In this document: positions 48,089-48,792 of the stretch, piece by piece
Numbering within the stretch: position 1 is the stretch's first letter
Layout: the number at the start of each line of letters is the position of its first letter
Notes under the pieces: generated by a model
Told to the model about the DNA's origin: nothing
The model's input: the letters and a program-made list of their open reading frames with translations, nothing else
The model's database searches: none
Source of the DNA: Escherichia coli
GTDB lineage: Bacteria > Pseudomonadota > Gammaproteobacteria > Enterobacterales > Enterobacteriaceae
NCBI RefSeq assembly: GCF_003334385.1
Contig: NZ_QOWN01000021.1
Reading direction: 5' to 3' (one strand)
Length of the DNA: 64,000 nt
Made by a program: the position numbers and the translations under genes

Positions 48089-48736
48089 ATGAATAAGGAA
48101 GAACAATATCTTCTTTTTGCGCTTTCTGCGCCCATGGAAATACTTAATCAGGGTTGCAAACCCGCGCATGACTCGCCAAAAATGTATACTGGGATAAAAG
48201 AATTCGAGCTCTCATCATCCTGGGGAATAAATAATCGTGATGATTTAATTCAGACTATTTATCAGATGACTGATGATGGTCATGCCAATGATTTAGCTGG
48301 CTTATATCTGACATGGCATCGCTCTTCCCCTGAAGAGTGGAAAGCATTAATTGCTGGTGGCTCGGAGAGAGGGTTGATTTATACCCAATTCGTTGCCCAA
48401 ACCGCTATGTGCTGTGGGGAAGGGGGAATCAAAGCCTGGGATTATGTTCGAATGGGGTTTCTGTCACGGGTCGGTGTGCTCAACAAGTGGCTGACGGAAG
48501 AAGAGAGTTTATGGCTGCAATCGCGCGTCTATGTACGAGCTCACCATTACTATCACAGCTGGATGCACTATTTTTCCGCCTATTCGTTAGGACGTCTCTA
48601 CTGGCAATCTTCTCAGTGCGAAGACAACACTTCGCTACGCGAGGCGCTAACCCTGTACAAATACGATAGCGCCGGGAGTCGTATGTTCGAAGAGCTGGTA
48701 GCGGGAAGCGATCGTTTCTATGCCACGCTTCCCTAG
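48089..48736 (+). CDS. ybeU: DUF1266-family protein, paralog of YbeR; ends at an in-frame TAG 19 codons before the position where ybeR ends
   Basis: 215-aa ORF; TAG at 48734-48736 aligns with TGG (Trp) of ybeR; downstream sequence still encodes paralogous residues in frame up to the djlC start. Confidence 0.75.
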
Positions 48737-48792
48737 CAGCCATTAACTGTCCAGTCTGAATGCCCGGTAACGCTTAAGGATGTGAGCGACCT

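Follow-up and report, generated by a model that had tools for sequence, protein, structure and literature searches.

A premature amber codon in ybeU, upstream of djlC, in a lineage of Escherichia coli

In one Escherichia coli assembly (GCF_003334385.1, contig NZ_QOWN01000021.1), the ybeU reading frame closes at a TAG codon before it reaches djlC, the gene with which it overlaps in the reference strains. The question raised by this locus is whether the TAG is a true mutation, a sequencing error or one sign of a decaying chaperone gene cluster, and what the early stop means for YbeU and for the translation of djlC. The stretch of DNA analysed, here called the window, is 64,000 nucleotides long, and all positions given are those of the window unless another sequence is named.

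HscC is a minor Hsp70, the ATPase of which is stimulated by DjlC (PMC8215388). Growing cells contain HscC, DjlB and DjlC in amounts too low to detect, and the sole reported phenotype is the Cd2+ sensitivity of strains that have lost hscC or the djlB and djlC genes together (PMC8215388). A search of the literature on ybeU and DUF1266 found no functional account. The cluster in the window has the order ybeQ (-), ybeR, djlB, ybeT (-), ybeU, djlC, hscC (-), followed by rihA and gltLKJI. Its features are as follows.

45292-45999, + strand: ybeR (235 aa), intact; the first-module paralogue of ybeU
45996-47423, + strand: djlB (475 aa), intact, with E107D at 46316; together with ybeR it forms the first module (45292..47423)
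47433..47987, - strand: ybeT, a Sel1/TPR repeat protein of 184 aa, between the two modules
48089..48736, + strand: truncated ybeU open reading frame, 215 codons and TAG, encoding a DUF1266 protein (open reading frame list, translation)
48699, + strand: Ala204Val in ybeU, C to T, a linked missense change; the alignment column is variable, with Val in many homologues
48734..48736, + strand: premature amber TAG in place of Trp216 (TGG), the substituted base being 48735, G to A (aligned base by base to strain N18-04097, to a K-12-like strain and to K-12 MG1655)
48737..48796, + strand: 3' remnant of ybeU left beyond the TAG, made up of 19 sense codons and the original TGA, now untranslated except for the 4 nt common to djlC
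48793..50244, + strand: djlC (483 aa), intact, a tail-anchored J-domain co-chaperone of HscC (open reading frame list, syntenic RefSeq annotation)
49354, + strand: A188T substitution in djlC (SNP effect)
50304..51974, - strand: hscC, intact, encoding an Hsp70-family protein of 556 aa that partners DjlC and DjlB as their chaperone

The amber codon in comparison with other genomes

A preliminary description, made from the sequence of the window alone, had ybeU reading FYATLP and then TAG at 48734-48736, with the frame running on for 19 residues into an ATGA overlap with djlC. The open reading frame list and translation confirm this. The TGA of the original frame, at 48794-48796, overlaps the djlC ATG at 48793, and the gap left untranslated between the ybeU TAG and djlC is 56 nt (48737-48792), the length given in that description. 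Its account of the paralogous pair is likewise accurate: the 26-residue tail of YbeR is as claimed, and the stop of ybeR (45292-45999) overlaps the djlB start at 45996, again as ATGA. Overall identity between YbeR and YbeU is 59%, and 13 of the 20 residues in the tail are the same. The loss from YbeU had been counted as the last 19 residues, however 20 are lost, these being Trp216 and the 19 that follow.

The ybeU of the window is the orthologue of K-12 b0648, with conserved ybeT - ybeU - djlC - hscC synteny, near-identity of sequence and 2 nt differences from the nearest genomes. A ybeU of 708 nt (235 aa and a stop, WP_001030934.1) that shares 4 nt with djlC is found in K-12 MG1655, a K-12-like strain and the complete genomes nearest to the window. 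The length of 235 aa given for K-12 YbeU in the preliminary description is correct. The alignment to reference E. coli genomes that had been proposed as a check finds TGG (Trp216) in K-12 and in the nearest complete genomes. The K-12 gene and the window allele occupy the same position between ybeT and djlC, specify the same first 215 residues apart from A204V and have the same DNA past the stop. They differ in that codon 216 in K-12 is TGG, giving 235 aa and a stop that overlaps the djlC start, whereas in the window it is TAG, giving 215 aa, and the overlap is gone.

A 31-mer centred on the TAG is present in 0 of 5,426 complete E. coli genomes and the TGG version is present in 4,157, a count that doubles as the positive control for the TAG search. 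Nor is there an exact 61-mer match to the TAG allele among the complete genomes. Wherever a complete E. coli genome has the gene, this codon is TGG. References that carry TAG and a ybeU of about 215 aa, which would have spoken against a strain-specific variant, are therefore not among the complete genomes searched. The counts, together with the 235 aa of K-12 YbeU, support the suggestion that this is a strain-specific nonsense variant, TGG to TAG. The codon is a sense codon in relatives and same-frame homology continues past the stop. Because none of the 60 nt downstream of the TAG differs from the reference tail, the TAG is a single substitution in an otherwise intact gene and not a chance feature. 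Taken as a whole, W216* is very probably a real, recent and lineage-specific amber nonsense mutation in ybeU.

Beyond the region compared most closely, the remaining window has 1-2 mismatches per 20-24 kb against ordinary E. coli (strain C and WG5, for example), and contains no insertion sequences. A Shigella or a decaying genome rich in insertion sequences was considered as the source and rejected, as the first 40 kb are 1-2 bases per 20 kb from phylogroup-A-like E. coli, with no insertion. In the region from 43000 to 52500 no curated RNA families were found.

The shortened protein and the translation of djlC

Full-length reference YbeU matches the PF06889 HMM with E=4.7e-45 over residues 41-216, which correspond to model positions 2-175 of 175. 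With Trp216 the truncated protein loses the final column of this model; PF06889 is recorded for the 215-aa product of the window. YbeU, DjlB and DjlC are without an NCBIfam model. No matches to the PADLOC defence-system models were found for YbeU, DjlC, DjlB or HscC, and the TPR proteins of the cluster have weak repeat-type matches only.

In an alignment of 22 homologues from Escherichia, Salmonella, Citrobacter, Kluyvera, Pseudocitrobacter and Leminorella, Trp216, Pro226 and Leu229 are invariant down to 41% identity, and the enterobacterial tail CPxTLKxVSDL is almost constant. The AlphaFold2 model of full-length YbeU has a mean pLDDT of 86 and a pTM of 0.86, with a tail pLDDT of 83-90 and a helix at residues 227-232. 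DUF1266 is modelled as an all-helical domain. A Foldseek search of the PDB with the YbeU model returned no match with E below 1 (best E = 1.2), and on the basis of the model the DUF1266 fold appears to be structurally uncharacterised.

Release factor RF1 would end translation 20 codons early at the TAG, giving a product that lacks Trp216, Pro226, Leu229 and the C-terminal helix, which the model sets confidently on the DUF1266 domain. Since the part lost holds these three invariant residues and a confidently modelled C-terminal helix, the function of YbeU is probably impaired, the truncated protein being probably destabilised or inactive. Conservation of the tail may in part reflect nucleotide-level constraint on the ribosome-binding site of djlC, rather than a need for the peptide. 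The lost tail contains one further feature.

48776..48780, + strand: AAGGA, a Shine-Dalgarno-like element placed 12 nt upstream of the djlC ATG and within the Leu-Lys-Asp codons of the lost tail

The 30-nt junction at 48769-48798, which includes the AAGGA and the ATGA, is 97% identical to its counterpart at 45972-46001 in the first module, against 63% for the two modules overall. This suggests that the djl start region is under nucleotide constraint or has undergone local gene conversion. The only other peak of inter-module identity as high as this is at 48414-48448, which encodes a 15-residue core.

K-12, the nearest genomes, both Salmonella modules and Leminorella all keep an overlap of 4 nt between a DUF1266 gene and the gene of the DjlB-DjlC type that follows it. 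Stop-start overlap of this kind, as would be expected of a coupled pair, is conserved in relatives and gone in the window allele. The ybeR-djlB pair of the window has the same 4-nt overlap as the DUF1266 genes of the reference strains, Salmonella and Leminorella. The ybeU allele departs from all of these in that the upstream ribosome would stop 56 nt earlier, and djlC has an AAGGA of its own. The statement that the TAG uncouples ybeU from djlC is sound as a matter of geometry, in that termination is now 56 nt upstream and not on the ATGA overlap.

The relatives differ in what surrounds these genes. In Salmonella (5001-9305 of the locus extracted) the two DUF1266-djl modules directly adjoin as a tandem pair that lacks an intervening ybeT-like gene, and hscC comes next, in the opposite orientation. 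In Leminorella richardii (5001-8431 of the locus extracted) the DUF1266 gene overlaps the gene for a 906-aa DjlB-type J-protein by 4 nt, and there is no Hsp70 gene within the 5-kb flanks. Since the Leminorella pair has no Hsp70 gene nearby, the conserved unit is the pair of DUF1266 and J-protein genes and not the whole E. coli cluster.

With ribosomes released 56 nt before the djlC start and not on the ATGA, termination-reinitiation would be lost or weakened, and DjlC synthesis would then depend on its own AAGGA site. No RNA structure that would hide the djlC start was found, the region being no more folded than its shuffles (MFE -18.4 kcal/mol, z=+1.69). A scan for consensus sigma-70-like promoters found none inside ybeU from which djlC could be transcribed, the only hits being at 47748 and 48821. 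Strain 2012C-4227 is annotated with an intact djlC although the whole of its ybeU is deleted. Because djlC has its own AAGGA, the RNA is unstructured and an intact djlC is present in 2012C-4227, which has no ybeU, translation of DjlC is probably lowered by W216* rather than abolished.

A larger role for the junction can be imagined, in which the invariant tail (W-x9-P-x2-L...) and the 4-nt overlap are together a device for the co-translational, one-to-one assembly of YbeU and DjlC. This is unlikely. If it were true, the W216* lineage would be a natural separation-of-function mutant, able to tell whether YbeU is an obligatory partner of HscC-DjlC, acting as an adaptor or assembly factor.

Gene decay and selection

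Roughly one in five complete E. coli genomes has no ybeU. Many disrupted forms are also present in public assemblies, including frameshift products of 193 aa and 134 aa, some of them in complete genomes (P0028, P0029, P0042, P0085, P0092, P0118), and an IS1 insertion in ybeU of strain SW071610. In E. coli 2012C-4227 (3962-7452 of the locus extracted) djlC begins 51 nt past ybeT with no ybeU between them, djlB is annotated as frameshifted and hscC is intact. Like W216*, the 193-aa, 134-aa and IS1 lesions and the 2012C-4227 deletion are independent hits on an accessory gene, with djlC and hscC kept. They are frameshifts, insertions and deletions, whereas W216* is a clean nonsense substitution that affects the last 20 residues only. 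A change at the end of a neighbouring gene was seen in SRR13494230, where A to G at 47423 alters the djlB stop (window 47421-47423; 5345-5371 of its own locus), extending the protein to 487 aa from 475 and carrying djlB into the oppositely oriented ybeT.

Decay of the second module, which had been offered as one explanation of the TAG, holds in part. The repeated frameshifting and deletion of ybeU in other strains are in keeping with it, but djlC and hscC are intact in the window. The most likely evolutionary reading of W216* is neutral pseudogenisation, because the module is dispensable, is barely expressed in the laboratory, is backed up by ybeR-djlB and is often broken elsewhere.

Between 38000 and 62000 the window differs from the nearest complete genome, that of strain N18-04097, at 8 bases. 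Four of these are in the chaperone cluster and all four change the protein (djlB E107D, ybeU A204V, ybeU W216*, djlC A188T), while no protein is altered by the four outside the cluster, which are synonymous changes in leuS, gltK, lnt and corC. This pattern might be taken to mean that the truncation was selected, either because loss or shortening of YbeU or a lower level of DjlC is advantageous or because the 215-aa protein is a functional short isoform. The repeated frameshifting and deletion of ybeU in other strains and the persistence of the W216* allele in several assemblies could be read in the same way. However, four nonsynonymous changes out of four would arise neutrally about a third of the time, and relaxed constraint fits the pattern equally well. 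The carriers are few and ybeU has no known phenotype, while a functional short isoform is difficult to reconcile with the loss of residues that are invariant across genera. Selection for the truncation is accordingly improbable. The four nonsynonymous changes agree with a relaxation of constraint in the chaperone cluster, the numbers being too small for proof. In the light of neutral pseudogenisation as the preferred reading, ybeU W216* is a rare pseudogenising mutation and represents ordinary gene decay in one small E. coli lineage.

Carriers of the allele and its mutational origin

The exact 215-aa protein, with A204V, is found on 8 public contigs from NCBI and Logan assemblies. Four accessions are represented (HAH1513567.1, HAH9033361.1, HAM4712651.1 and OWD67296.1), and all are named 'DUF1266 domain-containing protein'. 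One contig, DABDAA010000011.1 of GCA_012738655.1, has 100% identity to the window from 42089 to 54736 (12,648 nt). The DjlC A188T allele is likewise on 8 contigs, the DjlB E107D allele is on 131, and full-length YbeU with A204V is on 3 contigs in public data. Of the last, a metagenome contig (L011, SRR6179076) equals the window from 47951 to 49378 at every base except for a G at 48735. A204V was tried as a marker of the immediate ancestor and rejected, as it is also present on a K-12-like background (L009, L010). Only L011 is the true pre-mutation haplotype.

These sequences bear on whether the TAG could be an error of sequencing or assembly in a genome that truly has TGG. The change is a single-base difference and is in none of the 5,426 complete RefSeq E. 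coli genomes, as an error would be. Against this, the exact 215-aa product has been deposited under four separate NCBI accessions and on 8 contigs from both NCBI and Logan assemblies, one contig equals the window over 12,648 nt with five other rare SNPs included, and the substitution is outside any homopolymer. Since the L011 haplotype has TGG, the TAG is the newest change on a real haplotype and not a read error. On the evidence of the assemblies (four accessions, 8 contigs and the identical 12.6-kb contig) the allele is real. The 8 contigs, the contig identical over 12,648 nt and the TGG version of the same haplotype effectively exclude the sequencing error allowed for in the preliminary description, and there is very little chance that the true base is G.

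Bypass of the stop, by an amber suppressor tRNA or by near-cognate read-through, would keep both full-length YbeU and the coupling to djlC. The locus at which a supE-type suppressor would be found is in the window.

63812..63998, - strand: two tRNA-Gln genes, both with a wild-type anticodon, CUG (ARAGORN)

A supE-type suppressor (CUA anticodon) at these two genes was looked for and rejected, both anticodons being CTG according to ARAGORN. Amber suppressors are rare in natural isolates and basal read-through is typically low. The 19 codons after the stop are fully intact and the context here is TAG-C, a C after the stop being one of the poorer settings for termination in E. coli, yet an intact tail is expected of any recent mutation and both tRNA-Gln(CUG) genes of the supE locus in the window have the wild-type anticodon, which leaves bypass with almost no likelihood.

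The base that has changed lies in the following pentamer.

48732..48736, strand not assigned: former Dcm site, ancestral CCTGG, now CCTAG (reference context compared with window context)

The mutated G pairs with the inner, methylatable C of the bottom-strand CCAGG. The ancestral sequence is thus CC(A/T)GG with a change of the inner C to T, which reads G to A along the complementary strand, as is expected of deamination in the Dcm context. A G:C to A:T change at the second C of CCAGG is a classic amber hotspot (PMC12606429), known from the lacI amber hotspots at Dcm sites (Coulondre 1978, as reviewed in PMC12606429). We infer a deamination origin for W216* from this sequence context: deamination of 5-methylcytosine on the bottom strand, with failure of very-short-patch repair, would have turned CCTGG into CCTAG. 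The likeness to the lacI hotspots is the G:C to A:T change at the inner cytosine of CC(A/T)GG that converts a sense codon to TAG. The lacI ambers come from a selected mutant collection, whereas ybeU W216* is a natural chromosomal polymorphism for which methylation and the failure of Vsr are deduced. Recurrence of the TAG in other lineages, which might be expected of a strong hotspot, was seen in 0 of the 5,426 complete genomes.

All three Dcm sites of ybeU in the reference sequence (CCTGG at window positions 48219-48223, 48435-48439 and 48732-48736) are located on invariant Trp codons, W45, W117 and W216. Each of these codons is one 5-methylcytosine deamination from TAG.

For annotation, the 215-aa 'DUF1266 domain-containing protein' of this lineage should be seen as a truncated ybeU, and the 56-nt 'intergenic' stretch before djlC as a gene remnant. 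Beyond annotation W216* matters little. The mutation is a neat case from nature of a Dcm-site amber change, and it provides an isogenic-like natural allele for probing the role of YbeU and of the ATGA overlap in the production of DjlC.
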